A DNA stretch of 64,000 nucleotides from Moorena sp. SIOASIH (GTDB lineage Bacteria; Cyanobacteriota; Cyanobacteriia; Cyanobacteriales; Coleofasciculaceae), in assembly GCF_010671925.1 (NCBI RefSeq), contig NZ_JAAHIH010000001.1, forward strand, positions 677,053 to 741,052, in the 5' to 3' direction. The position numbers and the translations under genes were made by a program. This document shows positions 9,877-64,000 of this stretch, piece by piece; within the stretch, counting starts at the first letter, position 1; every line of letters begins with the position of its first letter. A model generated the notes under the pieces. It had not been told where the DNA came from, did not search any database, and saw only the letters and a list, made by a program, of their open reading frames with translations.

Positions 9877-10099
9877 CATCCAGTCCTAGGGGCGAAGTAT
9901 TTGGGAAGAAACTTGTTGGAAAAACGACGATATTTAGATCCAAATGCTTCCCCTGATCGCTATTTTGGCAAGAGGTCTAATACCGAGTTGCATTCAAAGA
10001 TAGTAGATGGGGAGATGGGGAGATGGGGAAATGGGGAGATGGGGAGATGGGGAGATTGGGGGCAGATAAAGTTGTACCTTTGATCGCAACTTAGTATAA

Positions 10100-10137
10100 A
10101 GAAAAGAGGCGCACGCTAGGCGAACGCCTCTTTTTTC
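10100..10137 (+). terminator. Rho-independent terminator after RTX paralog B
   Basis: aaaagaggcg / cgcctctttt stem followed by tttttt. Confidence 0.65.
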
Positions 10138-10287
10138 ATATCAATACCATTTTTATAGTCCGGGTAATCGGTAATTGGTAATCGGTAATCAAACCACTAT
10201 TACCAATTATAAATTAAGTACATAGCAACAAATAATGATTAGTTAACTGTGACAATATATAACATTTAGTGATAATTTGCTGTAAAA

Positions 10288-10335
10288 TAAACAGCCAAAA
10301 TGGCGTTTGAAATATATTGATTATATTTATAATTT
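10288..10335 (+). promoter_or_regulatory. Candidate promoter of RTX paralog C: CAGCCAAAATGGCG box plus TTTATAAT
   Basis: Same box-to-(-10) spacing as upstream of paralog B. Confidence 0.5.
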
Positions 10336-10371
10336 TCATCTAATATAGTTGTCCAAAAAAACGGAAAATTC

Positions 10372-19892: not shown

Positions 19893-20689
19893 GGTGGTAG
19901 ATCACGCTAAATTAACATTTTAGGGAAATGACCAATGTTTTGGGAAAGTCAGCGACCAATTCTCTTGCTGCCCTTAGCTTTGCGGGGCGAGTTGGGCATT
20001 GTTGAGCAGACCGAAATCTTTGGCATTACCTGACTTCTACTTGCCCCTTTTCCAGATAGCTTAAATGCACCCCGAGATCAGAACTTAAACCCTTCCCCTT
20101 TAAGTAGCCGTCGGTCGGTCAAACCTCTTGGCTGAGCACGCTGTGAGGTGTGGACTTGAGCAGGACTGACCTTAGGGTTAGGCTCTCCAAGTTACCTCCG
20201 TCTCACCTTTGGTGGGGTGCATGGGAGTGAATTAAACAAAGGAATTGGAATTTAACTCTGCCGCAGTGTGCATCATGGGGGATTCTCAGGGGATTCTAAA
20301 CGGTTGTTACGAGATGGGTGTGGAGCCATATCTGAACACGTTTTTCTCCCCTTCTATTCTCACAGCGCTTTTCCACTTTTCTGATAAAAGATCAATTTCA
20401 TCTGAGTATGTTGCTAAATTGGCAGATTTTTGGCAGCTTTTTACAAAGCTTGACATAGTGATAGCTAGCTTCAAATTTCATTTGTCCTTAGTCATTAGTC
20501 CTTTTCACATCACTGTGTTGCCAAATTGGCAAATTTTTACATAGTTTGATATAGTGATAGGTAGCTTCAAATTTTCTTAGTCATTAGTCCTTTGTGGCTA
20601 ACCACGGTCTGTTGGTATTTACAAATGACTAATGACTAAATAACTAATAACTAATAACTAATGACTAATCAGCACTTGTTAACGATCTA

Positions 20690-23600: not shown

Positions 23601-23917
23601 ATGGAAACCTCCCGCTGTTTTTCAGCATCAAAGCCTAGTAGTCGTATCCGCCCCTGACAAACTAGGTAAAGATATTGGTGGTCTTGTTCAATCTGAACAG
23701 AATCTTGGGATAGCTCTGGTCTAGTATAGGCAAGGATTTTATCCCCTAACTGGAATTGCTCAAGGTCAAATGATTGACTAAATTCATAGTTGAGCTTTGG
23801 ATCGACTGAGTCTAGGGTCAAGCTTTGAAGCACCACTGATAAATTGCTAGCAGGGTCTGGGTTGATAGAAGACGGTGGTTTCCCAGGCTCTGCCGAATCC
23901 CTGATTATATTCTTCAT
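20690..23917 (-). CDS. Peptidase-containing ABC transporter (cNMP-binding-like + C39 + ABC), HetC-like, paralog 2
   Basis: 1075 aa. QQSSSDCGAACLAMIGQYWGKRF, GRSGSGKST, LSGGQRQRIAIARAL, ILILDEATSSLD. Its linker region between the N-terminal domain and C39 differs from paralog 1. Confidence 0.9.
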   Translation of the reverse strand: MKNIIRDSAEPGKPPSSINPDPASNLSVVLQSLTLDSVDPKLNYEFSQSFDLEQFQLGDKILAYTRPELSQDSVQIEQDHQYLYLVCQGRIRLLGFDAEKQREVSIQVLEEGETFGAYDLLGSLSYPYRAIAASSGQVARISLNQLLPWLERLPKWSEILGKQAQHRQCLIFFKTLTKLRTLNGVTLNQLLPYIVETRIEAGESLVSCSQAGHCWLRSGQMGTPEGTEENSSAPFPSIGESWGYPMSVPTNWIAQTDVLLYQLPQEHWQAACAIAPVLDNSTESPDQENRQTAKNGDGKSPSHQRLVNKTHTPSPHPNQTRARPTRRVLEPPKQQTPKEPSQSESFDFPKPAKQGWRFLRFWQRYPFIEQQSSSDCGAACLAMIGQYWGKRFALNSLRELAGVGRSGSSLKGLAKAAESLGFQASPVRASLGRLADRSNPWIAHWQGDHYIVVYQVKGNKVLVADPAVGKRSLPRKDFLQGWTGYAMLLDPTPQLAVIPSDKRSLGPFWGLLWPHRSVLLQIILATLILQVFGLITPLFTQIILDRVIINRSLVTLNVFSIGLIIFGLWTIGVSLTRRYLLDYFSNRLSLTFISGFINHTLTLPLKFFESRQVGDILTRIQETGKIQGFITQQAIATWLDVVMVFVYIGLMLYYNWRLTLLVLATILPIAILTVIASPFLRQVSREIFKEAAQQNSMLVEMMSGVATVKTAASEQEVRWRWEDRLTNQLNVQFKGRNLANGLGSISSLINTLSSTALLWFGASLVISEQLTIGQYVAFNMLIGRVTGPILALVNLWDEFQEILVSVERLNDVLSAKPEENPQEPMLVLPEIKGDVILEDVTFRYSEDEDRNILQNISLDIRAGETIALVGRSGSGKSTLVKLLQGLYHPTNGRILIDGHDIRHISPQSLRSQMGVVPQECFLFSGTIVENITLYRPDFSLDQAVEVAKLAEAHAFIQGMTLGYNTKVGERGSTLSGGQRQRIAIARALLGNPKILILDEATSSLDTESERRFQQNLARISRDRTTFIIAHRLSTVRNADCILVLDRGVLVEKGNHEELMDRQGLYYHLAQQQLDL

Positions 23918-29089: not shown

Positions 29090-30665
29090 ACAAACTATGG
29101 CGCTGGTGTATTTACTCAGACTGCTCAGTCAAGGATTTTTAGTCTGTCTGCGAATGGGATTGGCTTCATTCTTGCCAGCAGTTGCGCGATGAAGCGTTCG
29201 CGTAGCGTGGCCTACGGCCTCAGCTTCCGCGCTTGTGCGAACGCATATCCTTGACATCCTCCCGCCACTAAGCTACCGCGCTTTGTGGGGGATTCCCAAA
29301 CCTCACGATTTAGGTTTCTGTTTCCTTCCCGTTTCGGCAAAGCCGACACTACGCGAACGGGATTTTCGCAACTGCCCTTCAACCTTATGGTTGTCAGGTC
29401 TTATGTTCGCTCCACAGACTGACACGGCAAGTCCTGCCGCCAAAATATTCTGACTCGCGTTGATATCACGGTCATGGATAATCCCACATTCAGGACACTT
29501 CCACTCCCTAATATCCAACGGCATTTTATCAACGATATGCCCACAGTTCCCACATCTTTTAGAACTAGGAAACCATCGGTCAATCTTAATTAAGTCTCGA
29601 CCATACCACTGGCATTTGTAATCCAGTTGTCTAGTTAATTCCCCCCAACTAGCGTCGCTAATAGCAAGGGCAAGTTTATGGTTCTTAACCATGTTTTTTA
29701 TAGCTAAATCCTCAACGACAATCGTTTGGTTTTCGCGTACCAGTTGAGTAGTCAGCTTATGCAAAAAGTCTTTACGGGTATCAGTTATGTGTCCATGTAC
29801 TTTAGCTACTTTTAGTCTAGCTTTTTGTCGGTTTTTAGAACCTTTCTTCTTGCGAGACAGGACTTTTTGAACACGTCTTAATTTCTTGTGTAACCCCTTA
29901 AAGTGCTTGGGATTAGTAATCTTTTCTCCGTCACTAGTAGCGATCAAGCTATTTATTCCCACATCCAAACCGATAGACTTATCAGTTTTTGGCAAAGGCT
30001 TAATAGTATGGTCATCTACCAGAATAGATACATACCAACGTCCTCTAGCATCCAACTTGACAGTAATAGTAGAAGGAGTGCAATTTTCAGGTATTTGTCT
30101 ACTCCATCGGATTGGCAAGTGCTCAGAGCATTTAGCTAAAAATACTTGCCCATTCTTCCAACGGAAAGCCGACTTAGTAAATTCAGCACTACCGCCATTA
30201 TGTTTCTTTTTGAAATTGGGATATTTAGCACGTCCTGCCCAGAAATTCGCAAATGCTTTTTTAAGGTTCCTCAAGCCTTGTTGAAGCGGTACACAGCTAA
30301 CCTCATTAAGGAAACTAAGCTCTTCTTGCTTTTTCCAACTTGTTAGCATTGAGGATGTTTGTGCATACCCAACTCGTTCTTGATTCTCATACCAAGCTTG
30401 AGTCCTAGCAGCTAAAGCCATGTTGTAAACCAACCGAGTACAACCCAGTGTCCGTCGCAAGAGAGTTTCTTGCTCGGTCGTTGGGTAAAAGCGATAGCGA
30501 TAGGCACGTTGAATCATACTCACATTATACACCACTTATTGTGAAGTCATACAAAGCGAGCAGGGCGGCGAATCCTGCTCACCGTTAAGCTTCGCGCTTA
30601 ACGGGAGTCTCCACGCCGAAGATAGATGAACTGCTTAATCATAAAGACAAAACCCATCAAGATAC
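29090..30665 (-). mobile_element. IS200/IS605-family element carrying only tnpB (IS1341-like); boundaries approximate
   Basis: tnpB ORF plus subterminal hairpins in the left end (gagcagggcggcgaatcctgctc; gttaagcttcgcgcttaac) at 30560-30620, and a structured right end 3' of tnpB at 29100-29300. Confidence 0.6.
29303..30535 (-). CDS. tnpB: TnpB (OrfB) RuvC-like RNA-guided endonuclease/transposase accessory protein
   Basis: 410 aa. The N-terminal MIQRAYRYRFYPT suggests the true start is at about 30517. RuvC motifs (IGLDVGI..., DRD) and zinc finger CGNCG...CPECG are present. Confidence 0.9.
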   Translation of the reverse strand: MVYNVSMIQRAYRYRFYPTTEQETLLRRTLGCTRLVYNMALAARTQAWYENQERVGYAQTSSMLTSWKKQEELSFLNEVSCVPLQQGLRNLKKAFANFWAGRAKYPNFKKKHNGGSAEFTKSAFRWKNGQVFLAKCSEHLPIRWSRQIPENCTPSTITVKLDARGRWYVSILVDDHTIKPLPKTDKSIGLDVGINSLIATSDGEKITNPKHFKGLHKKLRRVQKVLSRKKKGSKNRQKARLKVAKVHGHITDTRKDFLHKLTTQLVRENQTIVVEDLAIKNMVKNHKLALAISDASWGELTRQLDYKCQWYGRDLIKIDRWFPSSKRCGNCGHIVDKMPLDIREWKCPECGIIHDRDINASQNILAAGLAVSVCGANIRPDNHKVEGQLRKSRSRSVGFAETGRKQKPKS

Positions 30666-30991: not shown

Positions 30992-31357
30992 TTACTCTTT
31001 TAAGTTCCCTTGACTGGGGTTTTGAGGCAAAGTAGACACCCTAGGGGTTCTACCGTATAGCCGGTCTAAAACCCGCTTAACCGAGATCCGTTTCCACTGC
31101 TGACCACGCTTGGTTGTATAGCCCTGTTGATTGAGCCAGTTAGCAATTTGTTGTAATGACTTGCCCGATTTATGGTGACGGCGAATTAACTCAATTACAT
31201 GCTGTTCTTGGGGATCATCCACCAACTCACCATTTAGGGCCCGTTGACCGAAGGCCGGTGAACCATAACCTGCATAGCCACCCATAGTTGCCTTCGCTTG
31301 TCTACCTTGGTTTAGCCTTTCGATCAGGCTATCCCATTCCAATTCCTCAGCAGCCAT
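30992..31357 (-). pseudogene. Remnant of a large serine recombinase (recombinase domain only; catalytic domain missing)
   Basis: 121 aa with the recombinase-domain signature GGYAGYG...LVDDPQEQHVIELIRRHHKSGKSLQQIANWLNQQGYTTKRGQQWKRISVKRVL. Only about 200 bp separates it from trxA, so there is no room for a catalytic domain. Confidence 0.45.
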
Positions 31358-36761: not shown

Positions 36762-37190
36762 AGACATAACGAAAAAATATTCTAGATAAACAGGATCTTG
36801 AATAAGTAGACAGTGTAAAAAACCTGTTTTGAGATAATCAGGTTGCACAATCAAGTCTAACGATTTGGGAGTCTATGAAGGTCTAAGATCCCAAAAAAAT
36901 GTTTATCTAAATTTGTTAATTAGTTTAGGTACGGTGGGGCACACCGAAACCTAGGTCATAGACCAAATACGCTTGGGTCGAGGAGACCTCTATTTTTCCT
37001 GGCTTCGGCCTGGTTAAACAAGTCCCCCCGTTGTTCGCGTAGCGTGGCCATAGGCCAAGCAAGAATCCCCGTCCTTCCAGGGCGGGGAGTGTCAACAGGC
37101 TTCTGAAGCGTTGCTGGTATAAAACAAAGTTTTTAACTGGCTAGAAATAGTCGCCATCCGAGCCCACGGATTGTTAATATAGATTTGCCT

Positions 37191-41639: not shown

Positions 41640-41950
41640 TTGCTTAGACACGGCTGATGGAATCGTAAGCTATCAGCTATCAGCGATTAGCGCTACGCGC
41701 ACGCTACTTGAGGTGCTATCAGCGATTAGCGCTACGCGCACGCTACTTGAGGTGCTATCAGCTAATGCGCGTAGCGCAATCGGTGCTTTTGAATACAAGA
41801 GGTAAGCATTCTTTTAATCTGAGTTAAGTCCCAGCGTCGTTCGCACAGCGTGGCCAAAGGCCAAAGCCTGTTCTACGCGAACGAGGTTTATTTTAAGCTG
41901 AAGGCTGACCGCTGACTGCTGAATGCTTACATGGTATCAAACCCTTATCA
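41640..41950. repeat. MITE-like small-repeat cluster including a 45-bp tandem duplication
   Basis: gctatcagcgattagcgctacgcgcacgctacttgaggt occurs twice. The taatctgagttaagtcccagcgt and gctgaatgcttac modules are shared with 54050-54195. Confidence 0.75.
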
Positions 41951-50365: not shown

Positions 50366-50673
50366 TTAGGGAGTCGGGAACAGGGAACAGGGAACAGTGG
50401 TAAGTATTCAGCTATCAGCTTATGCGCTACGCGCACGCTACGCGAACAGCTATCAGCAGGAAATAGCTGCAAGTAGCCTCTAATATTATCACAAATTGGG
50501 ATTGAGTTTTATAGCAATTCTAAATATAGAATGAACAATCTTGCTGATTTATCATAACATCAAAAACTCTTGGGATTTCTTTTATACTACTCCCTATTAC
50601 CTGCTTCGATGCTCCCTAAAACCCAGAACGAAAGTACTTCAACGAATTTGAAATCGCTGTGACAACTGCTGTC

Positions 50674-52041
50674 TTATTCTTCATAAAAATTCAAAGCAAA
50701 ATCCAAAACTTGAATAATAAAATCAACATCTGCTTTTGTAATACAAAGGGGTGGTTTAATACGTATAACATTACGATGTAAACCACCTTTACCAATGAGT
50801 AGTCCTAAATTTTTGGATAGTTCATGAATTTGGGCAACCAGCTCAGAGTTTGGCTCTTTTGTTTGACGATTTTTAACTAAATCAACACCAATCATTAGTC
50901 CGCAACCACGAACATCACCAATACATTCATGGGTTTCTTGTAAATGCTGAATAGATTTGAGTAAATAATCCCCAACTATGGCACAATTTTGTTGTATATT
51001 GTCCCTTTCAATTGTCTCTAAAACTGCTTTACCTGCTGCACAAGAAACAGGGTTACCCGCAAATGTATTAAAGTGGAGCTTTTGAGTAAATGCTTGGGCA
51101 ATTTCCGGTGTTGTCACCACAGCAGCAAGAGGTACTCCATTACCAATACCCTTAGCTAAGGTGACAATATCAGGTTTGACATCGTGAAGTTCAAAACCCC
51201 AAAAAGCTTTACCCGTTCTACAAAATCCAGTTTGTACTTCATCCGCAATAAATAATCCATCTGCTTGATGAACATAATCATAGACTTTTTTGAGGTAGCC
51301 ATCTGGATAAACAATTGTTCCCCCTACTCCTTGAATAGACTCTGCAATAAAACCAGCAATCTTGCCAGAGGTTGCATATTGAATTAGATTCTTAACTTCA
51401 TTTGCATATTTATCAGCAACATTATTTTCATGGTTATTCCAAGCACCTCTGTAAACATCGGCATTCATAGCATGATGAATACCAAAATTATGAGGAGTAT
51501 GATATTTCCAAGTACTATGAGATGTTAATCCCATGGAATTACCACTCATACCATGATATCCATTCTGGAGGGTAATGATATCAAAATTTTCCGTATAAAC
51601 CCTCGCCATCAGCATTGCTAAATCATTCGCTTCTGAACCCGAATTAACAAAATAAACCATTGATAAATGATCGGGCATTTTATCTACTAACATTTTGCTA
51701 TATTGAGAAATAGTGGGGTGTAGATAAAGTGTCGTCGCGTGTTGCAATTTTGCTGATTGTTCTTGTACAGCTTTAACCACATGAGGATGGCAATGACCCA
51801 CACTGATTGTCGCAATTCCAGCAAAACCATCTAAATAGCGTTTTCCCGTTTCATCGAACACATATTGCATCGAACCCTCAACAATCATGAGCGGTTGCTG
51901 ATAGTAAGTGTCAACCACTGGGTTCACATATTGTTGTCTTAAATCAATAACTTGTTGTTTTGAAAGTCCTACATAAGGATGGGGATGATAATCGTATGGG
52001 GGAATAGAGGGTCTATCCTGGGAAAGTTTTTTATTCTGCAT
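50674..52041 (-). CDS. Class-III (AGXT2/GABA-AT-like) PLP-dependent aminotransferase
   Basis: 455 aa. Shows the SGSEANDLA, ADEVQTGFCRTG and TLAKGIGNG blocks with the Lys of the PLP site. Confidence 0.85.
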   Translation of the reverse strand: MQNKKLSQDRPSIPPYDYHPHPYVGLSKQQVIDLRQQYVNPVVDTYYQQPLMIVEGSMQYVFDETGKRYLDGFAGIATISVGHCHPHVVKAVQEQSAKLQHATTLYLHPTISQYSKMLVDKMPDHLSMVYFVNSGSEANDLAMLMARVYTENFDIITLQNGYHGMSGNSMGLTSHSTWKYHTPHNFGIHHAMNADVYRGAWNNHENNVADKYANEVKNLIQYATSGKIAGFIAESIQGVGGTIVYPDGYLKKVYDYVHQADGLFIADEVQTGFCRTGKAFWGFELHDVKPDIVTLAKGIGNGVPLAAVVTTPEIAQAFTQKLHFNTFAGNPVSCAAGKAVLETIERDNIQQNCAIVGDYLLKSIQHLQETHECIGDVRGCGLMIGVDLVKNRQTKEPNSELVAQIHELSKNLGLLIGKGGLHRNVIRIKPPLCITKADVDFIIQVLDFALNFYEE

Positions 52042-52060
52042 GATTATAGAAAGATCAGCT

Positions 52061-52786
52061 TTAAATTTTTCGGTAGATGAAATATGTTTCAGCTTTGATA
52101 CTTTCTTCTACAAAGTTGGCTTGACTAAGCATCGTTGTTGTAGTTTGATAGCTGATTAATCTTAGTTTTAGTTTTTGTTCTGCCAATAATTTTTCATTTT
52201 GATAGAAAAGATAATCGAGAATCGTATAACGTTCATCTTCGTTTCCTTCAGTATGAGCAATTCTCTTATGAACAATTCCATTTTCCAATTCTACCAAGTT
52301 ATCACCATAGGCATTAGATGAACTAATAATCAATAGACCGTCTGGTTTGAGATGTTTTGCAACCCGATCAAAACTTTTTTGAATCTCCGTTAAACCTAAA
52401 ATATGGCTGGCGAGCATTGTTTCAACTTGATCGTTAACAAATGTCCAAGCACCCCCACGGGAATACACAACATCGAACTGTTTACCCAGATCAAGTTCGG
52501 AGACATTTTGACAATGTAAATCAACTGTTTTTCCTAATTTATTCTCCGCCTGTTCTAATAGAGATTCACTGGTATCAATTCCAGTAATTTTGTAAGCGGG
52601 TTGAATTTGCAGTAAATGTTCTACAACTATACCCGTACCTATCCCTATATCTAAGATATCTCTAGCCTCTCCTATGAGTTTAGCAAGTTCAGTGGCAATT
52701 TTATGGTAGTTCCTATTCTTTTGAACAAAATCATCATAAAATTGGGCAAGTTTATGATATTGGTCGTTCATATATTGGTCGCTCAT
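52061..52786 (-). CDS. Class I SAM-dependent methyltransferase
   Basis: 241 aa. Motif I ILDIGIGTG; post-I acidic residue. Confidence 0.75.
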   Translation of the reverse strand: MSDQYMNDQYHKLAQFYDDFVQKNRNYHKIATELAKLIGEARDILDIGIGTGIVVEHLLQIQPAYKITGIDTSESLLEQAENKLGKTVDLHCQNVSELDLGKQFDVVYSRGGAWTFVNDQVETMLASHILGLTEIQKSFDRVAKHLKPDGLLIISSSNAYGDNLVELENGIVHKRIAHTEGNEDERYTILDYLFYQNEKLLAEQKLKLRLISYQTTTTMLSQANFVEESIKAETYFIYRKI

Positions 52787-52848
52787 ATATTAAATTAATA
52801 CTCTTGAATATTTATTTTGTAAAAGTTCTATTGTTTGTCTTATATTCA

Positions 52849-53385
52849 TCAATTCAATTCTTTCGTCCATCGATTAAATTTATTTTTAGTAGGTGTATGA
52901 ATATAACCATATTTCTTTGCCAAAAATTTCGCGCCCGCTTCTGTGCCCATTTCGGTAATTATTTTTTCAAAGCCCGCATTTTTAGTGACTTCATGTACTT
53001 TATCAATAATAGCACTCATTATCTCATGGCGGAATTTTGGATATAATTCAATTGTAAACATCCATCCTAGATCGCAGTCTTCTTTACCTTCTGGTTTATA
53101 AGATGGAATTACAAAAAATGCACCCAAGATATTTTCACATAAATCTAGTGCGATAATATGCACTAAACCTTCTTGATAAGGGTCGGTAATATTTTTGAAA
53201 GTATGTTCTGCTGGACGAGTCCTCAAAAAGTTGTCATTAAAGTTTGAATCTCCAAAAACTCGATATAAAATGGCTTTTATCTCTTTCCAGCGATTGAGAA
53301 TATATTGATGATCGACAACTTCTATTGTATAGTCTCTTTTTTGTTTATTTAAATCAAGTTGTTTGTTAGTTTTTTCTAATTTCAT
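52849..53385 (-). CDS. GNAT-family N-acetyltransferase (tentative)
   Basis: 178 aa. Motif A-like segment EIMSAIIDKVHEVTKNAGFEKIITEMGTEAGAKFLAKKYGY. Confidence 0.5.
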   Translation of the reverse strand: MKLEKTNKQLDLNKQKRDYTIEVVDHQYILNRWKEIKAILYRVFGDSNFNDNFLRTRPAEHTFKNITDPYQEGLVHIIALDLCENILGAFFVIPSYKPEGKEDCDLGWMFTIELYPKFRHEIMSAIIDKVHEVTKNAGFEKIITEMGTEAGAKFLAKKYGYIHTPTKNKFNRWTKELN

Positions 53386-53879
53386 CTAGTTTTTATTCCT
53401 GATAATTAACTTTGTCAACAACATCAAATAACGTGACTTCAATGAACCTCTCCCCAACCGCTCCTAAAAACTTGAACAAAACTAAATTTGTTTAACAACG
53501 TTATACCTCTTCAAGACCCATGTCAACTAGTGCTACCTACTTGCGGGGAGGATTCTCGCTTCCGGTCTGGAAGGGAATATAAGACGAAATAGTTTTCTAC
53601 AATCCCCCAGTAACTTCAGGGGTGTCGATTTCTATTGTCTATCCTCTACTATAAATCGAGCGTATCTGATTAGGTAAAAGTTAAACTCCTATCCAATAAT
53701 ACCTTTTATATTTTGCAATCAAAAATAATATTATTTAAGTTTTGTGTAGCTTTTGTTATACCAAATCCTGGCAATAAATCAGGCATAAGCTCAAGATGAG
53801 TTAATTTAAATTAATAGGATATCGCTTCAATATTAGCTTTTAAACCCCGAATGTTGTATAAAACATATCATCTAAATTT

Positions 53880-54195
53880 GTGTAAGTATTCAGCTCTCAG
53901 CTATCAGCTCTCAGCTATCAGCTTAAGCGCTACGCGCACGCTTGGCCTTTGGCCACGCTTCGCGAACGCGAACAGCTCTCAGCTCTCAGCTTTTGAATAA
54001 GCGATGCAGCAAGGGAACAGGGGGTTTCCCCCACTCGCTATTGCATCAAGACAACAAGTAAGCATTGGTTTAATCTGAGTGAAGTCCCAGCGTAGAAGCC
54101 TGTGCCAAAAAGCACCTCAAGTAGCGTGAGCCTTTAGCTCACGGCTGTTCGCGTAGCGTGGCCTACGGCCAACGGCTGACGGCTGAATGCTTACA
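53880..54195. repeat. MITE-like small-repeat cluster
   Basis: Shares the cagctatcagc, gcgctacgcgcacgc, gtttcccccactcgc, taatctgagtgaagtcccagcgt and aatgcttac modules with 12540-12810 and 41640-41950. Confidence 0.75.
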
Positions 54196-54455
54196 AATTT
54201 GTTTTTTTTACAGGGTAAATTTATAATTATGTGTTCCAAATTCCAGCTATTAGCTAAACCAGTAACCATTCTAACCCTTGAATTGTAACTAATTATTACA
54301 CATTTTACAAATTGCCTTGACTTTTTTTGGTTTTAGGTTGACAATAAAGTTACCCAATGATTATACTATAATCATGAAAAAAAAGCCGCGCTTTCTGCCG
54401 ACCAAGCGCCAAGCGCGGCTTTCTACCCAATTACAATTGAGGTAATTCTATAATA

Positions 54456-54996: not shown

Positions 54997-55851
54997 ATGG
55001 TTTTCCCCTTACCCGATAAATACATTGACCTGCTCACGGATTTCGGTTTTAAGCGCGTCTTTGGCACTGAGCCCAACAAGGCACTGTTGATCGATTTCTT
55101 GAATACGCTGTTGCCTCCCCACCATCAGATTCAGGATGTCACTATTAAGAATCCCGAGTTTTTGGGTAACACTTTAGTGGATAGAAGAGCGATTTTCGAT
55201 ATTTATTGTCAGAGCACAACCGGTGAACGCTTCATTGTGGAAATGCAAAAGGCAAAACAAAATTTCTTCAAAGACCGGAGTGTTTACTATTCCACTTTCC
55301 CCATCCAAGAACAGGCGCAACAGGGAGATTGGAATTATAAGCTAAAGGCAGTCTACACCGTTGGTATTTTAGATTTCATTTTTAATGACCATAAGCAGGA
55401 TTCAGAACTGTTGCATGTGGTAGAGCTAAAAAATCAGCGGTGTGAAGTGTTCTACGATAAGTTGAAATTCATCTATGTCGAGCTACCGAAATTTACTAAA
55501 TCTGTTGATCAACTAGAAACCCATTTTGACAAGTGGTTATTTTTATTCAGGCATCTTGCCCAATGTAATGCTCCCCCTGAACCCTTGCAAGAGGATGTGT
55601 TTGCTCAGCTGTTTGAAGTAGCTGAGATTGCCAACTTTTCCTCCGAGGAGCAAGGCCTGTATCAGGATAGCCTCAAAGTCTACCGGGATATGTATAGTGT
55701 TAATCAAACCTTGATTCAAGAAAGTCTCGAACAAGGTAGACAACAAGGTATAGAACAGGTTGCTAAACAGATGAAGGCAGCAGGATTACCCCTGAAGGAT
55801 ATTGCTCAGTATACGGGGTTGAGTGTGGATGAGATTAATCGGTTGTCGTAA
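54997..55851 (+). CDS. Rpn-family recombination-promoting nuclease / putative transposase (PD-(D/E)XK, YhgA-like)
   Basis: 284 aa. The N-terminal DLLTDFGFKRVFG...RAIFDIYCQ...ERFIVEMQ block is characteristic of this family. Confidence 0.8.
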   Translation: MVFPLPDKYIDLLTDFGFKRVFGTEPNKALLIDFLNTLLPPHHQIQDVTIKNPEFLGNTLVDRRAIFDIYCQSTTGERFIVEMQKAKQNFFKDRSVYYSTFPIQEQAQQGDWNYKLKAVYTVGILDFIFNDHKQDSELLHVVELKNQRCEVFYDKLKFIYVELPKFTKSVDQLETHFDKWLFLFRHLAQCNAPPEPLQEDVFAQLFEVAEIANFSSEEQGLYQDSLKVYRDMYSVNQTLIQESLEQGRQQGIEQVAKQMKAAGLPLKDIAQYTGLSVDEINRLS

Positions 55852-55984: not shown

Positions 55985-58951
55985 CTATTCTAATTGCTCC
56001 TGAGCAAACTCCCGCAGTTCAGGATCCGAGTCATGCTCTGCTCTATCCTGCAATAAGAATCGGGTTTGGGAATGGTTAGGATAATATTCGAGGATGGCCT
56101 TAAGGGCTACTTGTCGAGGATTGTCTATTATCCAGTTTTGCTTACGTTCAAAGCGGTCATGGAGAGTGCGATCGCATAAAAATTTAAATAACCAAGGCTG
56201 ATCCTGCCAACCTTGAGCTAACTGTTCAATTGCTGTACCTCGCACAGTCAAATTTTTATCAGAGCGAGCCGATTGTTGAAGTAGGGCTAAGGTATCTCGG
56301 TGGTCTTTGTAACCTTGAGCTAACTTTTCAATTACTCTACATCGCACATACCAATCTTTATCAGAGCGAGCGGATTCTTGAAATAAGGCTAAGGTATCTG
56401 GGTGGTCTGGCCAACCTTGAGCTAACTGTCCAATTGCTGTAACTCGCACATCCAAATCAGTATCAGAGCGAGCCGATGCTTGAAGTAGAGCTAAGGTATC
56501 TTGATGGTCTTGGTAACCTTGAGCTAACTGTTCAATTGCTTTACCTCGCACATTCCAATCAGGATCAGAGCGAGCCCATTCTTGAAGTAGGGCTAAGGTA
56601 TCTGGGTGGTCTTTGTAACCTTGAGCTAACTGTTCAATTGCTTTACCTCGCACCGACAAATCAGGATCAGATCGAGCCCATTTTTGAAGTAGGGCTAAGG
56701 TATCTCCATGGTCTTGCCAATGGGTTGCTACTGCTACAACAGCTTTAGCGCGAATATCACTATCACTGAATCTTTTTCTATTTTGATCATAATGAATTAA
56801 GTCTTTGACCCGATTCAGTAATCGAGTATCCGTTAATTTAATCTCATAGCGATTCCTAACCTCAGACAAACAATTCGCTGCCAGAAATAAATTATTAAAC
56901 TTATATCCTTCTCCATCTTGTGCCATCAAATAATCAATAATCTCGCCAGCTTTCTTAGAATCAATCATTCCTACAATCAACCTCAGCACTTCATGCCAAG
57001 ATTCATCCCGCCAGTGCTGACCAAATACTTCATTTTTCAACTGTTCTAGGTCAATCTCCTGTTTTTTCTCAAATTTCCTGACAAATTCCCAGGCACAGAA
57101 ATATTCCAAAAATGTCCGATGCACAAAGGCGTAATAATCGGCTCCCATGAAACACAAGATAAAATTGCGGGTGCGCAACTGATTAATCATTACCTTAGCA
57201 ACGGTTCTCGGGTCATTAATTTCCCGTAATTTAAGCTCCTTTTTGATAATTGTTTCTAAATCCTCGCCACTAATCAGATTTCCCGCTAATCCGGCTTGAT
57301 TGCCCTGCATGAAATCTGCTACTTTTCCTAGCATCTGTTGCTTATCTTGATAATCAATAGTCTTCGGGTCAACACGATTATCTTCTAGTAATGCTCGTTC
57401 TACATCCCATTGATGGAGCAGTAATCGAGACGATTGGTTATAGAGTTCAGAGCGGTCACGAGGCAATTCTTGATTGCGATTCAGGATTGCCATCATGGTT
57501 AGTAATAGGGGATTTTGCGCCAGTTGTCGAATCGGGGAGGATGTCTCAATTGCGTTTTGTAAGCGCTCCCGTTTCCTAACTTTATCCCCTTGATCAGTAA
57601 AGGTTAACTCATGCCACTGCTCGATAAAGGTTTGAATTTGTTCTGAGTCCAAGTCTTGGAGCATAACATGACGAAATTCAGCATCCCGTAGCCGTTGGGG
57701 TTTATAACCAATTACCCGAGATGTTACAATTACTCGTACCTTAGGATACTTATTCGTAAAGCGATGAATATCCGTAATTACATCCTCTCGTTTCCCTGGC
57801 TCAAACACTTCATCCAAGCCATCAAACATCACTAATGCCTTACCATCTTTTAACTGCTGATCAAGGTGATGTTGATTCAGATGACATATCGCTCCACTGC
57901 TTTGATGGCAGAATTCCAAGAAACTATTACACTGTCCGTTATCGCGATTCCGGATATAAGTGCGTAATTCAATCAGTAACGGAATCCGTAGAGAAGGTTC
58001 AGTAGTTAGATCGGTTCTTGCCCAATTTAATGCTAAATATTGCAGCAAGGTAGATTTACCAGAGCCTGGGTCTCCTAAAACCACCAAATACCGATAGTCT
58101 TGAGAGTCCTTAATCACATCCAATACGGATTTTATCGGCTGTTGATAATAATCCTTTTTAGCTCGTTGCAACTCCTTTTGGTCAATTTCCTGATCTAGTT
58201 GACCACTCTCTCGCAGTTTTTGATAATAATCCTTAGGCAGTTCATGAATCGCCTCTGGCATCAAGTCATGAACCTCTCGCACATTTTGAGGGATAAATAT
58301 TTTCCATAGTTTTAGTTCATTATAGGCACAGCCACTGGTATCTAAACTATCTAATTTGACATTACCGTAGCTCTCTAGGAGTGCTTCTTGATATTCCCTT
58401 AAGTCAAAATCTGGGGTAATTCCTGGTTTAGTGTTTTCTGCGATCGCTTCCAAAGTTTGGGAATCTTGGATAGGCCGTAAATCATCGGATTCCTGAATAA
58501 TCGTTCTTACTTCCTTGAGATACCGTTTACCAATATAGTGCCAATCAAATCCTTCCGGTAATGCTAATAAGTCAAGCTCAATCCAAGTCTTATCTAATTT
58601 TTCGGTATCTATTCGTTTACAGCCATACTTAAAGGCACTGCCCAGGATAGCTTTAATGGATTTATGTTTAATATATTGCTTGAGGGGTTTAGTATACTGT
58701 TTTACGTCTTGCTTAGATAAATCAGCATCTTCCAACTCTTCTTCCACTAAAGCCACGAATTCTTTTAAGGCTTTACCGAAGAGTTTTTTCTGGGTAGTTT
58801 GATCCGATAGTCCGGTATACTCTTTGATAGACTCTTTGAAAAACTCTTTAGTGTAGTCTTCTAGAGCGCCTTTGGCCAACGGACCAATTACTTCTTTGGC
58901 CAGATAGCCACCGGCACTATAAATTCCCCAAACTGCTAACCAATCCAGCAT
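55985..58951 (-). CDS. STAND NTPase: unknown N-terminal domain + NACHT + C-terminal HEAT-like repeats, paralog 1
   Basis: 988 aa. Walker A VVLGDPGSGKSTLLQYLA, Walker B LVMFDGLDEV, and about 8 HEAT-like repeats of ~34 aa (DxDxxVRxxAIEQLAQGYKDHPDTLALLQ). Confidence 0.85.
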   Translation of the reverse strand: MLDWLAVWGIYSAGGYLAKEVIGPLAKGALEDYTKEFFKESIKEYTGLSDQTTQKKLFGKALKEFVALVEEELEDADLSKQDVKQYTKPLKQYIKHKSIKAILGSAFKYGCKRIDTEKLDKTWIELDLLALPEGFDWHYIGKRYLKEVRTIIQESDDLRPIQDSQTLEAIAENTKPGITPDFDLREYQEALLESYGNVKLDSLDTSGCAYNELKLWKIFIPQNVREVHDLMPEAIHELPKDYYQKLRESGQLDQEIDQKELQRAKKDYYQQPIKSVLDVIKDSQDYRYLVVLGDPGSGKSTLLQYLALNWARTDLTTEPSLRIPLLIELRTYIRNRDNGQCNSFLEFCHQSSGAICHLNQHHLDQQLKDGKALVMFDGLDEVFEPGKREDVITDIHRFTNKYPKVRVIVTSRVIGYKPQRLRDAEFRHVMLQDLDSEQIQTFIEQWHELTFTDQGDKVRKRERLQNAIETSSPIRQLAQNPLLLTMMAILNRNQELPRDRSELYNQSSRLLLHQWDVERALLEDNRVDPKTIDYQDKQQMLGKVADFMQGNQAGLAGNLISGEDLETIIKKELKLREINDPRTVAKVMINQLRTRNFILCFMGADYYAFVHRTFLEYFCAWEFVRKFEKKQEIDLEQLKNEVFGQHWRDESWHEVLRLIVGMIDSKKAGEIIDYLMAQDGEGYKFNNLFLAANCLSEVRNRYEIKLTDTRLLNRVKDLIHYDQNRKRFSDSDIRAKAVVAVATHWQDHGDTLALLQKWARSDPDLSVRGKAIEQLAQGYKDHPDTLALLQEWARSDPDWNVRGKAIEQLAQGYQDHQDTLALLQASARSDTDLDVRVTAIGQLAQGWPDHPDTLALFQESARSDKDWYVRCRVIEKLAQGYKDHRDTLALLQQSARSDKNLTVRGTAIEQLAQGWQDQPWLFKFLCDRTLHDRFERKQNWIIDNPRQVALKAILEYYPNHSQTRFLLQDRAEHDSDPELREFAQEQLE

Positions 58952-59232
58952 CTTATTGGTAGTTGTTTTTTGCTTTATCTATCATTATAGACGAAAGGCA
59001 ATCAGTTTGACCTGATGGTGCGTTACGGGACGGACTGTCTCAACACTGGCTACGCATAACATGAGGGCGAGCCCGGTGCATCTCAATGCATGCTATTTGA
59101 CGCGGTGGTGCGTTACGGGCAGCAACCTAACACTTGCTATGGCTTGCGTCTTGGCGAGCCCGTCCCTAACACACCCTACGCCTTAATTTTAAATTCTAAA
59201 TTCTAAATTCTAAATTCTTCATTCTAAATTCT

Positions 59233-62200
59233 TCATTCTAAATTCTCCTTAGCAAACTTCCGCAGTTCAGGATCGGGGTCATGCTTTGCTCTATCCTGTA
59301 ATAAGGATCGGGTTTCGGAATGCTTAGGATAATATTCCAGGATGGCATTAAGAGCTACTTGTCGAGGATTGTCATCCCAGTCTTCCTTACCCTCAAAGGG
59401 TTCATGGAGAGTGCCATCCCATAAAAATTCAAATAACCAAGGCTGGTCTTTCCAACCTTGAGCTAAATGTTTAATTGCTGTACATCGCACATCCGAATCA
59501 GTATCACAGCGAGCCGATTCTTGAAGTAGGGCCAAGGTATCTTGGTGGTCTTGGTAACCTTTAGCTAACTGTTCAATTGCTGTAACTCGCACCTGCCAAT
59601 CAGTATCACAGCGAGCCCATTGTTGAAGTAGGGCTAAGGTATCTTGGTGGTCTTGGTAACCTTTAGCTAACTGTTCAATTGCTGTAACTCGCACACTCGA
59701 ATCAGTATCAGAGCGAGCCCATCGTTGAAGTAGGGCTAAGGTATCTGGGTGGTCTTTGTAAGCTTTAGCTAACTGTTTAATTGCTGTAACTCGTACCCAC
59801 GAATCAGTATCAGAATCAGAGCAAGCCCATTGTTGAAGTAGGGCTAAGGTATCTCGGTGGTCTTTGTAAGCTTTAGCTAACTGTTGAATTGCTGTAATTC
59901 GTACCCACGAATCATAATCAGAGCGAGCCCATTGTTGAATTAGGGCTAAGGTATCTTGGTGGTCTTTGTAAGCTTTAGCTAACTGTTCAATTGCTTTACA
60001 TCGGACATCCGAATCAGTATTAGACCGAGCCAATTCTTGAAGTATGGCTAAGGTATCTTGGTGGTCTTTGTAACCTTTAGCTAACTGTTCAATTGCTCTA
60101 ACTCGCACCTGCCAATCAGTATCACAGCGAGCCAATTCTTGAAGTAAGGCTAAGGTATCTCGGTGGTCTTTGTAAGCTTTAACTAACTGTTCAATTGCTG
60201 TAGCTCGCACCCACGAATCAGTATCAGAGCGAGCCAATTCTTGAAGTATGTCTAAGGTATCTATGTGGTCTTTGTAAGCTTTAACTAACTCTTCAATTGC
60301 TCTAACTCGCACCTCCGAATCAGTATCACAGCGAGCCGATTGTTCAAGTAGGGCTAAGGTATATTGGTGGTCTTTGTAACCTTGAGCTAACTGTTCAATT
60401 GCTCTAACTCGCACCTCCGAATCAGTATCACAGCGAGCCGATTGTTTAAGTATGGCTAAGGTCTCTTTGTGGTCTTTGTAACCTTGAACTAACTGTTCAA
60501 TTGCTCTACATCGCACCCACAAATCAGTATCAGAGCGAGCCAATTCTTGAAGTAGGGCTAAGGTATCTGGGTGGTCTTTGTAACCTTTAGCTAACTGTTC
60601 AATTGCTGTAGCTCGCACCCACAAATCAGTATCAGAGCGAGCCAATTTTTTAAGTAGGGCTAAGGTATCTGGGTGGTCTTTGCAACTTTTAGCTAACTGT
60701 TCAATTGCTCTAACTCGCACCCACAAATCAGTATCAGAGCGAGCCAATTTTTTAAGTAGGGCTAAGGTATCTCGGTGGTCTTGCCAATGGGTGGCTACTG
60801 CTACAACAGCTTTAGTGCGAAGATCACGGACTAAGTTGGCCTCATCTCTATACTTTTTATCAGTATAATTTAGATCATAATGAATTAAGTCTTTGACGCG
60901 ATTCAGTAATCCAATATTCGTTGATTTAATCTCATACCGATTCCTAACCTCAGATAAACAATCCCCTGCCAGAAATAAATTCTTAAACTCATCCTCTACT
61001 CCACCTTGTGCCATCAAATACTCAATAATCTCTCCACCTTTCTTAGAATCAATCATGCCCACAATCAACTGCAGCGCTTCATGCCAATATTCATCTCGCC
61101 AGTGCTTACCAAATACCTCAGTTTTCAACTGTGCTAGGGAAATCTCCTGCTTTTTCTCAAATTTCCTGACAAATTCCCGAGCACAGAAATATTCCAAAAA
61201 TGTCCGATGCACAAAAGCGTAGTAATCTGCTCCCATTAAACAAAAGATAAAATTGCGGGTACACAACTGATTAATCATTACCTTAGCAACAGCTTTAGGA
61301 TTAGTAATCTCCCGTAATTTCAGCTCCTCTTTGATAATTCTTTCTAAATCTTCCCCACTAATCAGATTTCCCGCTAATCCGGCTTGATTACCCTGCATGA
61401 AATCTGCCACTTTTCCCAATATCTGTTGCTTATCTTGATAATCAATCGTCTTTGGGTCAACAGGATTATCTTCTAGTAATGCTAGTTCCACATCCCATTG
61501 ATGGAGCAGTAAGCGAGAAGATTGGTTATAGAGTTCAGAGCGGTCACGAGGCAATTCTTGATTGTGGTTCAGGATTGCCATCATCGTTAGTAATAGGGGA
61601 TTTTGCGCCAGTTGTCGAATCCGAGAGCATGTCTTAATGGCTTTTTGTAAGCGCTCCTGTTTCCTAACTTTATCGGCTTGATCAGTATAGGTTAACTCAT
61701 GCCACTGCTCGATAAACGTTTGAATTTGTTCCGACTCCAAGTCTTGGAGCATAACATGACGAAATTCAGCATCCCGTAGCCGTTGGGGTTTATAACCAAT
61801 TACCCGAGATGTCACAATTACTCTTACCTTAGGATACTTATTCGTAAAGCGATGAATATCAGTAATCACATCTTCTCGTTTCCCTGGCTCAAACACTTCA
61901 TCCAAGCCATCAAACATCACTAATACTTTACCAGCCTTTAACTGATCATCAAGTTTATTTTGATTCAGATGACATATCGCTCCACTACTTTGATGGCAGA
62001 ATTCCAAGAAATTCTGACACTGTCCACTATCGCGATTCCGGATATAAGTGGGTAAGTCAATCAGTAACGGAATCCGTAGAGAACGTTCAGTAGTTAGATC
62101 GGTTCTTGCCCACTCCAATGCTAAATACTGGAGCAACGTAGATTTACCAGAGCCTGGGTCTCCTAAAACCACCAAATAGCGATAGCCTTGAGAGTTCTTG

Positions 62201-62667
62201 ATCACATCCAATATGGATTGAATTGGCTGTTGATAATAAACCTCTTTAGCTCGTTTCAACTCCTCTTGGTCAATTTTCTGATCTAGTTGACCACTCTCTC
62301 GAAGTTTTCGATAATCATCCTTAGGCAGTTCATGAATCGCCTCTGGCATCAAGTCATGAACCTCTCGCACATTTTGGGGGATAAATATATTCCAGAGTTT
62401 TAGTTCATTATAAGCACAGCCACTAGTATCAAAACTATCCAATTTGACATTACCGTAGCTCTCTAGGAGTGCTTCCTGATATTTCCTTAAGTCAACATCT
62501 GGGGTAATTTCTGGTTTAGTGTTTTCTGCGATCGCTTCCAAGGTTTGGGAATCTCGGATAGGCCGTAACTTATCGGATTCCCGAATAATATTTTTTACTT
62601 TATTATTGTTCTTCTTTTTTACTTTCTTAAGATAGTTTTTACCAATATAGTACATAGTGCCAATCAA
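59233..62667 (-). pseudogene. STAND NTPase NACHT + ~17 HEAT-like repeats, paralog 2, separated from its N-terminal domain by a small-repeat insertion
   Basis: 1144-aa body ORF collinear with paralog 1 from residue ~140 onward. The N-terminal domain is encoded by a separate ORF (62728-63282). The junction (62600-62760) carries a 3-bp insertion, an inserted A/T-rich stretch and a GGCCGTTGGCCACGCTACGCGAAC repeat, relative to paralog 1 at 58500-58660. Confidence 0.6.
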
Positions 62668-62727
62668 ATCCTTCCGGTAATTCTAATAAGTCAAGCTCAA
62701 TCTAAGTCTTCGCTAATATATCGGTAT

Positions 62728-63282
62728 CTATTCCTTGGCCGTTGGCCACGCTACGCGAACACAGCCATACTTTAACGCACTGCCCAGGATAGCTTTAATG
62801 GATTTATGTCTAATAAACTGCTTGAGAGGTTTACTATACTGTTTTAATTCTTGCTTAGATAAATCAGCATCTTCCAATTCTTCTTCCACTAAAGCCATAA
62901 ATTCTTTTAAGGCTTTACCCAAGAGTTTTTTCTGGATATTTTGATCCGATAGTCCGGTATACTCTTTGATAGACTCTTTGAAAAAATCTTTCGTGTAGTC
63001 TTCTAGAGCTTCTTTGGCCAAGGGACTAATCACATCTTTGGCGAGATAGCCACCAGAACTATACATTCCCCAAACTGCTAACCAATCCAGCATGATATTG
63101 GTAGTGTTTTTTGGTTCATCTATCATTATAGAGCAAAGGGAGTAGGGAGTAGGGAGTAGGGAGTAGGGAACAGCGGATCTGGGAGTCGGGAATCGGGAGT
63201 CGGGAATCGGGAATCGGGAGTCGGGAATCGGGAGTCGGGAATCGGGAGTCGGAACAGCGTTTTTCATAAGTATGAGGTACAC
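62728..63282 (-). pseudogene. Detached N-terminal domain fragment of NACHT paralog 2
   Basis: MLDWLAVWGMYSSGGYLAKDVISPLAKEALEDYTKDFF... is about 85% identical to residues 1-135 of paralog 1. Both ends of the ORF run into repeats. Confidence 0.55.
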
Positions 63283-63378
63283 AGGATTTTTTTCCTGTTC
63301 CCTGATCCGAAGTTCCCTGATCCGAAGTTTCCTGTTCCCTACTCCCTACTCCCTACTCCCTACTCCCTACTCCCTACT
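63137..63378. repeat. STRR-like heptamer arrays (GGGAGTA)n, (GGGAATC/GGGAGTC)n and complementary (CCCTACT)n arranged as a large inverted structure
   Basis: Left arrays 63137-63250 and right arrays 63300-63378 are reverse complements around a central ttttcataagtatgaggtacacaggattttttt. Confidence 0.85.
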
Positions 63379-63465
63379 GGCTGACAGCTGACGGCATTAG
63401 GCTAAATGCTTAGCAACAGTTGCTAAAATCAAAGTCATGAGTCGGACAAAAATTGAGGTAATCTC

Positions 63466-64000
63466 ATGTCTGTTGCCAAACCCTTATTTGAGCAGGTTAT
63501 TCTCCCTCATCCGGCCAAAGAAACCCTGCCCACCATGTATGATTTACCCAGTGAAGATCCGGAGGAACCGGGTTTGCCTGACGAATGTCATCTTTGGCAA
63601 CCACAACTGTGTAGTGAAACATTTCGCCCTCCCAATTATGACAGCGAAAGGGTGTTTGTCGCCAGTGACTTAAATTTATATTATGACCCCAACCATACCG
63701 CTTGGTACAAACGACCGGATTGGTTTGCCGTAGTAGGGATTTCCCGATTCTACCAGGGACGAGAGCTGAGAATGAGTTATGTGATCTGGCAAGAAGAAGT
63801 CAGACCAATTGTGGCGATAGAGTTTCTCTCTGCCAGTACCAAGGATCAAGACCTCGGTTACAGCGAACGAACGGGAGAACCACCGACGAAATGGGAAGTG
63901 TACGAGCAGATTTTAGCAATTCCCTACTATATCACCTTTGAGCGAGTCACCAACGAATTAAAAATCTTTCACTTAGATGGCGGCAGCTATCAACTCCAAA
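63466..64000 (+). CDS. Uma2-family (DUF820) endonuclease, 3'-partial (runs off the window)
   Basis: Manual translation gives MSVAKPLFEQVILPHPAKETLPTMYDLPSEDPEEPGLPDECHLWQPQLCSETFRPPNYDSERVFVASDLNLYYDP... This matches the common cyanobacterial Uma2 pattern. It is absent from the ORF track because no stop falls inside the window. Confidence 0.75.
   Translation, partial: MSVAKPLFEQVILPHPAKETLPTMYDLPSEDPEEPGLPDECHLWQPQLCSETFRPPNYDSERVFVASDLNLYYDPNHTAWYKRPDWFAVVGISRFYQGRELRMSYVIWQEEVRPIVAIEFLSASTKDQDLGYSERTGEPPTKWEVYEQILAIPYYITFERVTNELKIFHLDGGSYQLQ

Follow-up and report, generated by a model that had tools for sequence, protein, structure and literature searches.

Two tandem NACHT genes and the lesions of paralog 2

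The stretch analysed here (the window in what follows) comprises 64,000 nucleotides (nt) of the cyanobacterium Moorena sp. SIOASIH (contig NZ_JAAHIH010000001.1, positions 677,053 to 741,052 of the forward strand), and its source assembly is a metagenome-assembled genome. It carries two tandem genes for NACHT proteins: paralog 1 is intact, and paralog 2 is divided into two open reading frames (ORFs) and harbours a copy of a small dispersed repeat, called the module below. The NNH2-NACHT-HEAT family to which these genes belong is common across filamentous cyanobacteria, and the closest relatives of the NACHT proteins are all from Moorena; the N-terminal ORF of paralog 2 matches a protein of Moorena sp. 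SIOASIH with 100% identity. Sequences fetched for comparison are given by an L number where they have to be told apart. The features of the locus are the following:

55985-58951, minus strand: paralog 1, intact NNH2-NACHT-HEAT gene, 988 aa, single ORF; reference for the empty site
59233-62667, minus strand: downstream ORF of paralog 2, as given in the ORF list
59233..62655, minus strand: par2C, the retained ORF, 1140 aa, with the C-terminal third of NNH2, NACHT and about 13 HEAT repeats of 102 nt
62603..62626, minus strand: A-rich in-frame insertion of 24 nt, encoding KKKNNNKV, in the C-terminal part of NNH2
62646..62659, minus strand: 7-nt tandem duplication, GCACTAT-GTACTAT on the coding strand; frameshifting; common to M. 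bouillonii and M. producens
62702..62704, minus strand: TGG to TAG nonsense codon in the original frame, between module and duplication; also in M. bouillonii
62737..62760, minus strand: inserted small dispersed repeat, coding strand GTTCGCGTAGCGTGGCCAACGGCC, plus strand GGCCGTTGGCCACGCTACGCGAAC; net +23 nt
62728-63282, minus strand: upstream ORF of paralog 2, as given in the ORF list
62728..63093, minus strand: N-terminal remnant ORF (stub) of paralog 2, 121 aa from the ATG at 63093, covering NNH2 profile positions 1-88
Flanks of the orthologous site: AAGTATGGCTGT … GAATAGATACCGAT

The Pfam profiles place NNH2 at residues 25-205 of paralog 1 (E = 9e-59), NACHT at 287-448 and HEAT from 790, which is the full architecture of the bacterial NLR-like STAND NTPases (PF22734 NNH2 + PF05729 NACHT + HEAT), whereas paralog 2 has no continuous NNH2. 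Since profile positions 1-88 fall in its upstream ORF and positions 115-181 in its downstream ORF, the lesions lie inside NNH2, and the break is in the middle of this domain, about 175 codons ahead of NACHT, rather than at the junction between the N-terminal domain and NACHT, where the initial annotation of the locus had put it. The PADLOC models gave no match for either NACHT paralog, and a role in defence is therefore an analogy and not a tested assignment.

The two paralogs were aligned with MAFFT on the coding (minus) strand (58400-58760 against 62490-62880). They are about 87% identical in the aligned stretch, with three extra pieces in paralog 2. The extra module described by the initial annotation was found at the expected place, with a net gain of 23 nt; what had been read as an extra tac is actually the 7-nt tandem duplication, whose junction makes the ATG (62655-62653) that opens the downstream ORF. 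The A/T-rich insertion also exists, as 24 A-rich nt in frame, but it does not belong to the repeat family: it was considered as a possible member and rejected, having no similarity to the family and being common to several species. The TGG to TAG change had been overlooked. On the coding strand the module reads GTTCGC-GTAG-CG-T[GGCC-AAC-GGCC], and on the assumption of an ancestral TGTG^AAGG, the state of gene B of M. bouillonii, the inserted unit would be TTCGCGTAGCGTGGCCAACGGCC (the caret marks the point of insertion).

The apparent N-terminal extension of the upstream ORF (63138-63252, …PIPDSRFPIPDSRF…) is a translated heptamer array of GGGAGTC type, different in length by 29-36 nt from that of M. 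bouillonii, and the real start of this ORF is the ATG at 63093. The 102-nt tandem HEAT units number 5 in paralog 1 (56209-56716) and 13 in paralog 2 (59444-60782).

Order of the lesions

The DNA used for comparison was a syntenic 21-kb stretch of M. bouillonii PNG5-198 (L001), in which three tandem NACHT paralogs stand beside the same CLC-channel and PmbA genes as in the window. Positions 57534-64000 of the window are colinear with it, with 90.9% identity over 6.5 kb. Six sequences were aligned, namely paralog 2, paralog 1, the M. bouillonii ortholog of paralog 2 together with genes B and C of the same stretch, and a paralog from a metagenome. The M. bouillonii ortholog has the 7-nt duplication, the 24-nt insertion and the TAG, but not the 23-nt module, and at the site it reads GGCTGTAAAGGAATAG against GGCTGT[GTTCGCGTAGCGTGGCCAACGGCC]AAGGAATAG in the window. 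Nor is the module present in paralog 1, in M. bouillonii genes B and C, in the metagenome paralog or in any of the outgroup proteins that were inspected.

The annotated M. bouillonii gene (L001 6247-9684) opens precisely at the ATG made by the duplication (MYYIGKNYIKKGKK…; MYYIGK), and a protein of M. producens (P0130), 93% identical to the window ORF, likewise opens with MYYIGK at that ATG (MYYIGKSYLKKGKKKNNKKVKN…); the 24-nt A-rich insertion is found in both species. Because the ortholog without a module already has the TAG, the duplication and the new ATG start, the split is older than the module. Thus, the initial annotation was right that paralog 2 consists of two ORFs, but not in attributing them to the insertion. 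As judged from these alignments, the split predates the divergence of the three Moorena lineages, and the module is a later insertion, present in the SIOASIH lineage only. Metagenome scans for the filled or empty site and for the junction of the 7-nt duplication gave no match.

The module stands 24 nt ahead of the former stop codon of the stub and some 80 nt ahead of the new start, and the TAG at 62702-62704 is the codon at which the N-terminal fragment ended before the module arrived. The sole effect of the module on coding is that the last 11 codons of the stub are replaced by VRVAWPTAKE and a stop, a tail translated from the module itself. As 23 + 7 = 30, both ORFs are in one absolute frame, with three TAG codons standing between them. 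Programmed recoding, or a compensatory restoration of the frame, was considered on account of this sum and rejected, given the three in-frame TAG codons and a duplication older than the module. A scan of 62500-63400 for promoters and terminators revealed nothing above chance, and no T-run follows the module.

The course of events that we propose is the following. Paralog 2 would descend from a tandem duplication of an NNH2-NACHT-HEAT gene, coding for an NLR-like STAND NTPase, and would have been split long ago. Before the divergence of SIOASIH, M. bouillonii and M. producens, the 24-nt insertion, the TGG to TAG change and the 7-nt duplication would have arisen inside NNH2; the junction of the duplication would then have supplied a new in-frame ATG, leaving the N-terminal 110 codons as a dead stub, and the 1140-aa NACHT-HEAT ORF would have stayed open from this ATG, apparently under constraint. 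Later, and in the SIOASIH lineage only, the 23-nt repeat would have entered the stub, moving its stop 24 nt upstream and leaving the integrity of the gene unaffected.

The tandem NACHT paralogs number two in the window and three in M. bouillonii (55985-58951 against L001 10001-15025). The N-terminal half of paralog 1 resembles M. bouillonii gene B, which is there a truncated ORF of 477 aa, and its C-terminus resembles gene C, a pattern that suggests a recombinational fusion or a deletion between paralogs.

Fate of the two halves

In M. bouillonii the stub has lost its start codon (ATG to ATC), has acquired two nonsense codons (both GAA to TAA) and has suffered a 1-nt deletion. Since the divergence of stub and linker (0.058) equals the synonymous divergence (dS) of the downstream ORF, which is 0.053 overall and 0.065 over the first 650 codons, the stub evolves neutrally.

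The downstream ORF behaves differently. It is free of stops across 3.4 kb in both species, and every indel is a multiple of 3. In its first 650 codons, which include the NNH2 tail, NACHT and the following region, the ratio of non-synonymous to synonymous divergence (dN/dS, or omega) is 0.44, against 0.34-0.38 for intact paralog pairs. When the 117 observed substitutions were placed at random in a neutral simulation, just 0.16% of the outcomes were stop-free (P = 0.0016). The NACHT-HEAT ORF thus appears to have been kept open since the split.

Two points speak against such constraint: omega is 0.76 over the whole of par2C and reaches 1.47 in its HEAT half, and the constraint that is seen could in part reflect gene conversion from intact paralogs, or too little elapsed time. 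On another view, par2C might be a young pseudogene that has yet to gain stops, and the whole of paralog 2 would be dead. The loss of half of NNH2 would fit this reading, as would the high omega values, the NCBI annotations, which differ in the start codon, and the flagging of P0130 as partial. On the other side stand an ORF open in three lineages, the rarity of stop-free outcomes in the simulation, the low omega of the first 650 codons and the neighbouring 414-nt stub, which took four disabling lesions in the same period. We consider a wholly dead paralog 2 to be rather unlikely, though it keeps some weight. A retained NACHT-HEAT ORF is preferred, and as a secondary, less probable reading the truncated protein, with its start made by the duplication, might be a functional partner or a decoy of the intact tandem paralog.

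Between the species, the HEAT half of paralog 2 combines the dN/dS of 1.47 with indels of 204 nt (two units); either diversifying selection or a shuffling of repeats may lie behind this, in a region presumed to be the sensor.

A family of small hairpin repeats

The initial annotation had counted the module among some ten dispersed copies, and this is borne out: the 24-mer, with up to 3 mismatches, occurs 6 times in the window against 0 expected, and the 14-nt 3' half of the module at 11 sites. The other full copies in the window, all five intergenic, are:

29196..29219, plus strand (GTAG strand): 85 nt downstream of tnpB
37033..37056, plus strand: 135 nt from a tRNA gene
41839..41862, plus strand: copy with 3 mismatches
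53944..53967, minus strand: within AGCTCTC/AGCTATC heptamer repeats, beside partial modules
54147..54170, plus strand: between CAGCCGT heptamers

Several copies are thus situated in heptamer arrays, as is also the case in L089. Extrapolated from the window, the density would be roughly one copy per 6-8 kb. Taking one genome per species, the 17-mer core was found at no fewer than 120 loci, 109 of them in five Moorena genomes among the matches listed; outside Moorena, the matches listed hold 11 single ones, in unrelated bacteria. The information content of 186 copies falls to background outside about -9 to +20 around the core. As conservation drops just outside, the unit is an element of 23-26 nt and not the tip of a longer miniature inverted-repeat transposable element (MITE).

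On the element strand the order is (T/A)TCGC-GTAG-CG-T, a stem, a loop of 3-4 nt, the complementary stem and an A; the T and the A pair, closing a GC-rich hairpin of 4-6 bp. In about 930 kb of Moorena DNA, a perfect hairpin directly follows the head CGCGTAGCGT in 217 of 253 cases (86%), compared with 6.5% of random positions, and the form GTAG-CG-T[GGCC-N3-4-GGCC]A is kept in more than 200 copies. Variation in the stems is compensatory: beside TGGCC/GGCCA (154 copies) we found TGACC/GGTCA, TGCGC/GCGCA, TAGCCC/GGGCTA and TCGGC/GCCGA. Some copies are nested in the loops of others, in the form GGCC[G/A TTCGCGTAGCGTGGCC...], and the module at 62737 itself contains two adjacent mini-hairpins. GGCC-type copies are usually flanked as …YGT^element^AAGG…. 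Most copies stand singly or in head-to-tail arrays, inverted pairs being occasional, and no family in Rfam matches the module.

The most regular array seen is that of M. bouillonii L039 (4094-4420), where 13 head-to-tail copies follow each other with an exact period of 39 nt (module plus AACCTCCGAACCTT); the arrays of other loci have periods of 30, 37 and 41-45 nt. In the window, terminator-like hairpins (AAAAGAGGCG…CGCCTCTTTT) are found downstream of two RTX-repeat genes (8411-8452 and 10098-10140), the loop in both cases being a variant of the module's 14-nt half (CACGCTAAGCGAAC and CACGCTAGGCGAAC).

Insertion polymorphism and movement of the modules

The site in paralog 2 is not the only one at which Moorena genomes differ by a module. 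An all-against-all BLAST of the fetched loci gave further filled/empty pairs, namely L089/L039, L084/L056, L060/L098 and L002/L001. A subfamily is inserted inside HIP1, an octamer of cyanobacteria, as GCG[ATCGCGTAGCGT-hairpin-A]ATCGC, in L025, L047, L071, L089, L002 and L129 and, inverted, in L128; the copy at 62737 lies outside HIP1 and differs in having a TTCGC head and the flanks TG^AAGG.

Members of this subfamily do interrupt genes. A HIP1-embedded module of 26 nt (ATCGCGTAGCGTAGCCCTTCGGGCTA), located where NNH2 is encoded, divides another NACHT paralog, leaving ORFs of 171 and 750 aa in M. producens PAL (L129 3505-3540) and of 171 and 733 aa in a metagenome contig (L002 2380-2415). The same 26-nt element occupies the homologous HIP1 site in a second metagenome contig (L128 2790-2825), where it likewise splits a NACHT paralog, and this insertion is independent because it lies in a different paralog and in the opposite orientation. 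The statement of the initial annotation that these repeats are mobile and inactivate genes is therefore supported by the filled/empty pairs and by the other split NACHT paralogs, but not by paralog 2, which was broken earlier.

HIP1-embedded look-alikes (ATCGCGTAGCGT-hairpin-A) were also noted on plasmids of Nostoc, Fischerella and Chondrocystis, with matches that are individually not significant (E-values of 0.7-9 for Nostoc and Fischerella). On plasmid2 of Chondrocystis sp. NIES-4102 (L127, 26137-26170) a HIP1-embedded module (ATCGCGTAGCGTAGCCCTTCAGGCTA) lies between two adjacent coding sequences both annotated as 'aldo/keto reductase', which looks like another gene split by a module, outside Nostocales and Moorena.

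In the Moorena loci, it is common for a copy to be found inside the 3' end of a tnpB gene or next to it, which may reflect tolerance, targeting or a mechanistic link. The window has one such gene (TnpB, OrfB_IS605 / Cas12f-like, 29303-30535, minus strand), with a module of the same kind as the small dispersed repeats (SDRs) discussed below at 29345-29370, in its last 25 codons or so (GTTCGCGTAGTGTCGGCTTTGCCGAA), and a second, inverted one 85 nt downstream of the gene (29196-29219); a serine-recombinase fragment (30992-31357) is found upstream.

As to how the modules move, their ends are uniform, their variation conserves the structure, they enter the centre of HIP1 specifically and in both orientations, and they nest in one another. 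The sharp ends, the precision at HIP1 and the nesting in loops suggest site- and structure-specific recognition. It is quite possible, though on balance doubtful, that the modules owe their movement to an activity supplied in trans which recognises hairpins on single-stranded DNA or RNA. They would then persist only where harmless, in intergenic DNA, repeats and dead remnants, though occasionally splitting live genes.

The alternative, that modules are copied in from other copies by template switching or microhomology-mediated repair, and hence with no dedicated machinery, would account for the lack of target-site duplications; the recurrent flanks (…YGT^…^AAGG) could serve as microhomology, and copies lie in slippage-prone heptamer repeats. 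It would also agree with the outcome of our searches for transposases, as Pfam identified no Y1_Tnp domain among the ORFs of the window and a crude motif scan no HUH…Y motif in 1292 ORF segments from about 930 kb of Moorena DNA. However, such copying does not readily explain the sharp and uniform unit ends in more than 140 different contexts, the precise insertion at the centre of HIP1 in either orientation or the nesting in the hairpin loops of other copies, and we regard it as unlikely. Movement by a structure-specific activity is preferred, and a bolder form of it, to which we give no more credence than to template switching, holds that the modules are among the smallest mobile DNA units, moved in trans with the target set by the 5-nt head. 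The rule proposed for the head as part of this form is that ATCGC may direct insertion to the HIP1 centre and TTCGC to TG^AAGG.

Comparison with known small elements

The closest counterparts are the SDRs (SDR1-8) of Nostoc punctiforme and its relatives, above all SDR5 and the structural group SDR4-6. They were reportedly described by Elhai et al. in 2008 as hairpins of 21-27 nt with compensatory changes, situated in heptamer repeats and nesting in themselves. The Moorena modules agree with them in every structural and behavioural respect that was compared: the indel relative to the ortholog is 23 nt and the family unit 23-26 nt, no longer conserved element surrounds it, and many dispersed copies exist. 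Their hairpins, with at least 5 complementary stem pairs, are backed by compensatory changes, and copies are found in tandem heptamer repeats and nested in their own kind. Presence or absence at orthologous Moorena sites, in the window against L001 and in the four further pairs, is another shared trait. One type, SDR5, is 21 nt long and sits between nucleotides 3 and 4 of HIP1 (PMC4390886; bioRxiv 10.64898/2026.06.24.733823); the Moorena subfamily in HIP1 is placed in the same way (GCG^ATCGC), unlike the copy at 62737, which is not in HIP1. There are also differences. SDR-like repeats have not been reported outside Nostocaceae (PMC5861425), whereas the host here is a marine, non-heterocystous Moorena outside that family, and the exact 17-mer core is confined to Moorena, matches elsewhere being single among those listed. 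By architecture and behaviour, rather than by a published consensus sequence, the module resembles the SDRs, and SDR5 in particular. The Moorena modules would then be the local equivalent of the SDRs of Nostocaceae, a known kind of element newly documented in Moorena.

A second comparison is with the repetitive extragenic palindromes (REPs), including their inverted doublets (REPINs) and the RAYT transposases that go with them. GTAG-tagged REP families are known in cyanobacteria, mobilised by RAYT (Y1 HUH) transposases, and the module likewise has a GTAG 2-3 nt 5' of a short GC-rich stem-loop (PMC3733652; PMC3116915). The distribution is similar too, since copies are mostly extragenic and some intragenic, as singletons, dimers and tandem clusters. 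On the other hand, the stems of the modules are of 4-6 bp instead of the usual 6-13 bp, inverted doublets do not predominate among them, and they have an additional conserved TTCGC/ATCGC head; targeting of HIP1 is no feature of REPs.

The initial annotation had called the insertion MITE-like. Like MITEs, such as Nezha in cyanobacteria, the module is non-coding, dispersed, repeated and able to interrupt genes. MITEs measure 70-300 bp or more, have terminal inverted repeats of 15-30 bp, make target-site duplications and derive from identifiable insertion sequences. The unit here is of 23-24 nt at this site (23-26 nt in the family), its ends (TTCGCG… and …GGCC(A)) are not inverted repeats, and there is no target duplication, the filled site being TGTG[23 nt]AAGG and the empty one TGT(A/G)AAGG. 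The label is thus not appropriate. In the HIP1 subfamily, the repeated ATCGC is ambiguous as to a target-site duplication.

Weighing the order of events

On the whole, we consider it very probable that paralog 2 was split anciently and that a repeat confined to SIOASIH later entered its stub. Some points weigh against this account. The assembly is derived from a metagenome, and the insertion is known from the assembled sequence alone; at the site, one orthologous DNA, that of M. bouillonii, was compared, the M. producens ortholog being available as protein only. The empty site is one base off (TGTA^AAGG against TGTG[..]AAGG), so that the exact ends of the module are ambiguous, and the difference may stem from an insertion of 23 nt with a substitution or from 24 nt replacing 1 nt. 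With regard to the element, the folding energy of the single hairpin (-6.3 kcal/mol, z = -0.9) is not significant by itself, and the structural argument therefore rests on the comparison of the family; moreover, no candidate for a mobilising enzyme was found in the ORFs of the window or in the roughly 930 kb of Moorena DNA scanned.

Of the other explanations of the site, the one that survives best is that the module is ancestral and was lost precisely in M. bouillonii, by excision or by gene conversion over a short tract. The empty site, one base away from a perfect 'module removed' sequence, is compatible with it, and possible donor paralogs are adjacent; nevertheless, all four other homologous sequences are without the module, which makes insertion more parsimonious, and bases specific to paralog 2 stand on both sides of the M. 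bouillonii site (GATATATTAGCG, TTCAAGTATGGCTGT), with no conversion tract visible. We regard such a loss as very unlikely.

Slightly harder still to sustain is the proposal of the initial annotation that the repeat entered an intact paralog 2, and split and thereby inactivated it. The module does cause a +2 frameshift, with a TAG 9 nt after it, and related 26-nt modules do split other NACHT paralogs; yet the ortholog without a module is already split by the common TAG and duplication and uses the new ATG, and the module lies upstream of a pre-existing stop, in a remnant evolving neutrally.

An assembly artefact that introduced the 23 nt is the least credible of all, in spite of the metagenome-assembled source and the high copy number of the module, since mis-joins at repeats link different loci rather than add one exact unit in colinear unique sequence, the flanks are colinear with M. 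bouillonii for 6.5 kb, and equivalent clean insertions are found in the isolates M. producens 3L, M. producens PAL and M. bouillonii.

Other features of the window

Some further differences between the window and M. bouillonii lie close to modules or heptamer repeats. A block of 3.8 kb (50379-54220) with a class-III aminotransferase, a methyltransferase and an unknown ORF of 178 aa is missing from the syntenic M. bouillonii region, which has about 230 bp in its place; its edges carry heptamer repeats and module copies at 50434, 53944 and 54147. A gene of the PD-(D/E)XK nuclease 'transposase' family (PDDEXK_2, Rpn-like; 54997-55851, plus strand), situated between paralog 1 and a conserved ORF of 136 aa, is flanked by perfect heptamer arrays (TAACTTC x8 and AGAATGT x6) and is also missing from the syntenic stretch.

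At the other end of the window there are two near-duplicate secretion modules (459-5473 and 18288-23917), each with an HlyD-family protein and a C39-peptidase ABC exporter that has an N-terminal cyclic-nucleotide-binding domain. Between them are three RTX-repeat proteins (6913-12198), one with a C-type lectin domain.

Implications

The causal story of this locus has to be corrected: the repeat sits in a remnant that was already dead, and the gene was broken by other lesions. In annotation, 62656-63093 would accordingly be labelled as a fragment of a pseudogene, and 59233-62655 as a NACHT-HEAT gene in its own right that is probably live. Mini-elements of SDR type, previously reported from Nostocaceae only, would also be present in the marine genus Moorena, which is rich in natural products. 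They have been active there in recent times, and relatives of theirs that target HIP1 have broken NLR-like genes more than once, which calls for caution in gene calling in Moorena. The exact filled/empty pairs are starting data for the study of the insertion mechanism. If the modules are indeed among the smallest mobile units, these pairs would make the 2008 question of how SDRs move directly testable, and the HIP1 site struck in both orientations in two NACHT paralogs would be part of that test set.

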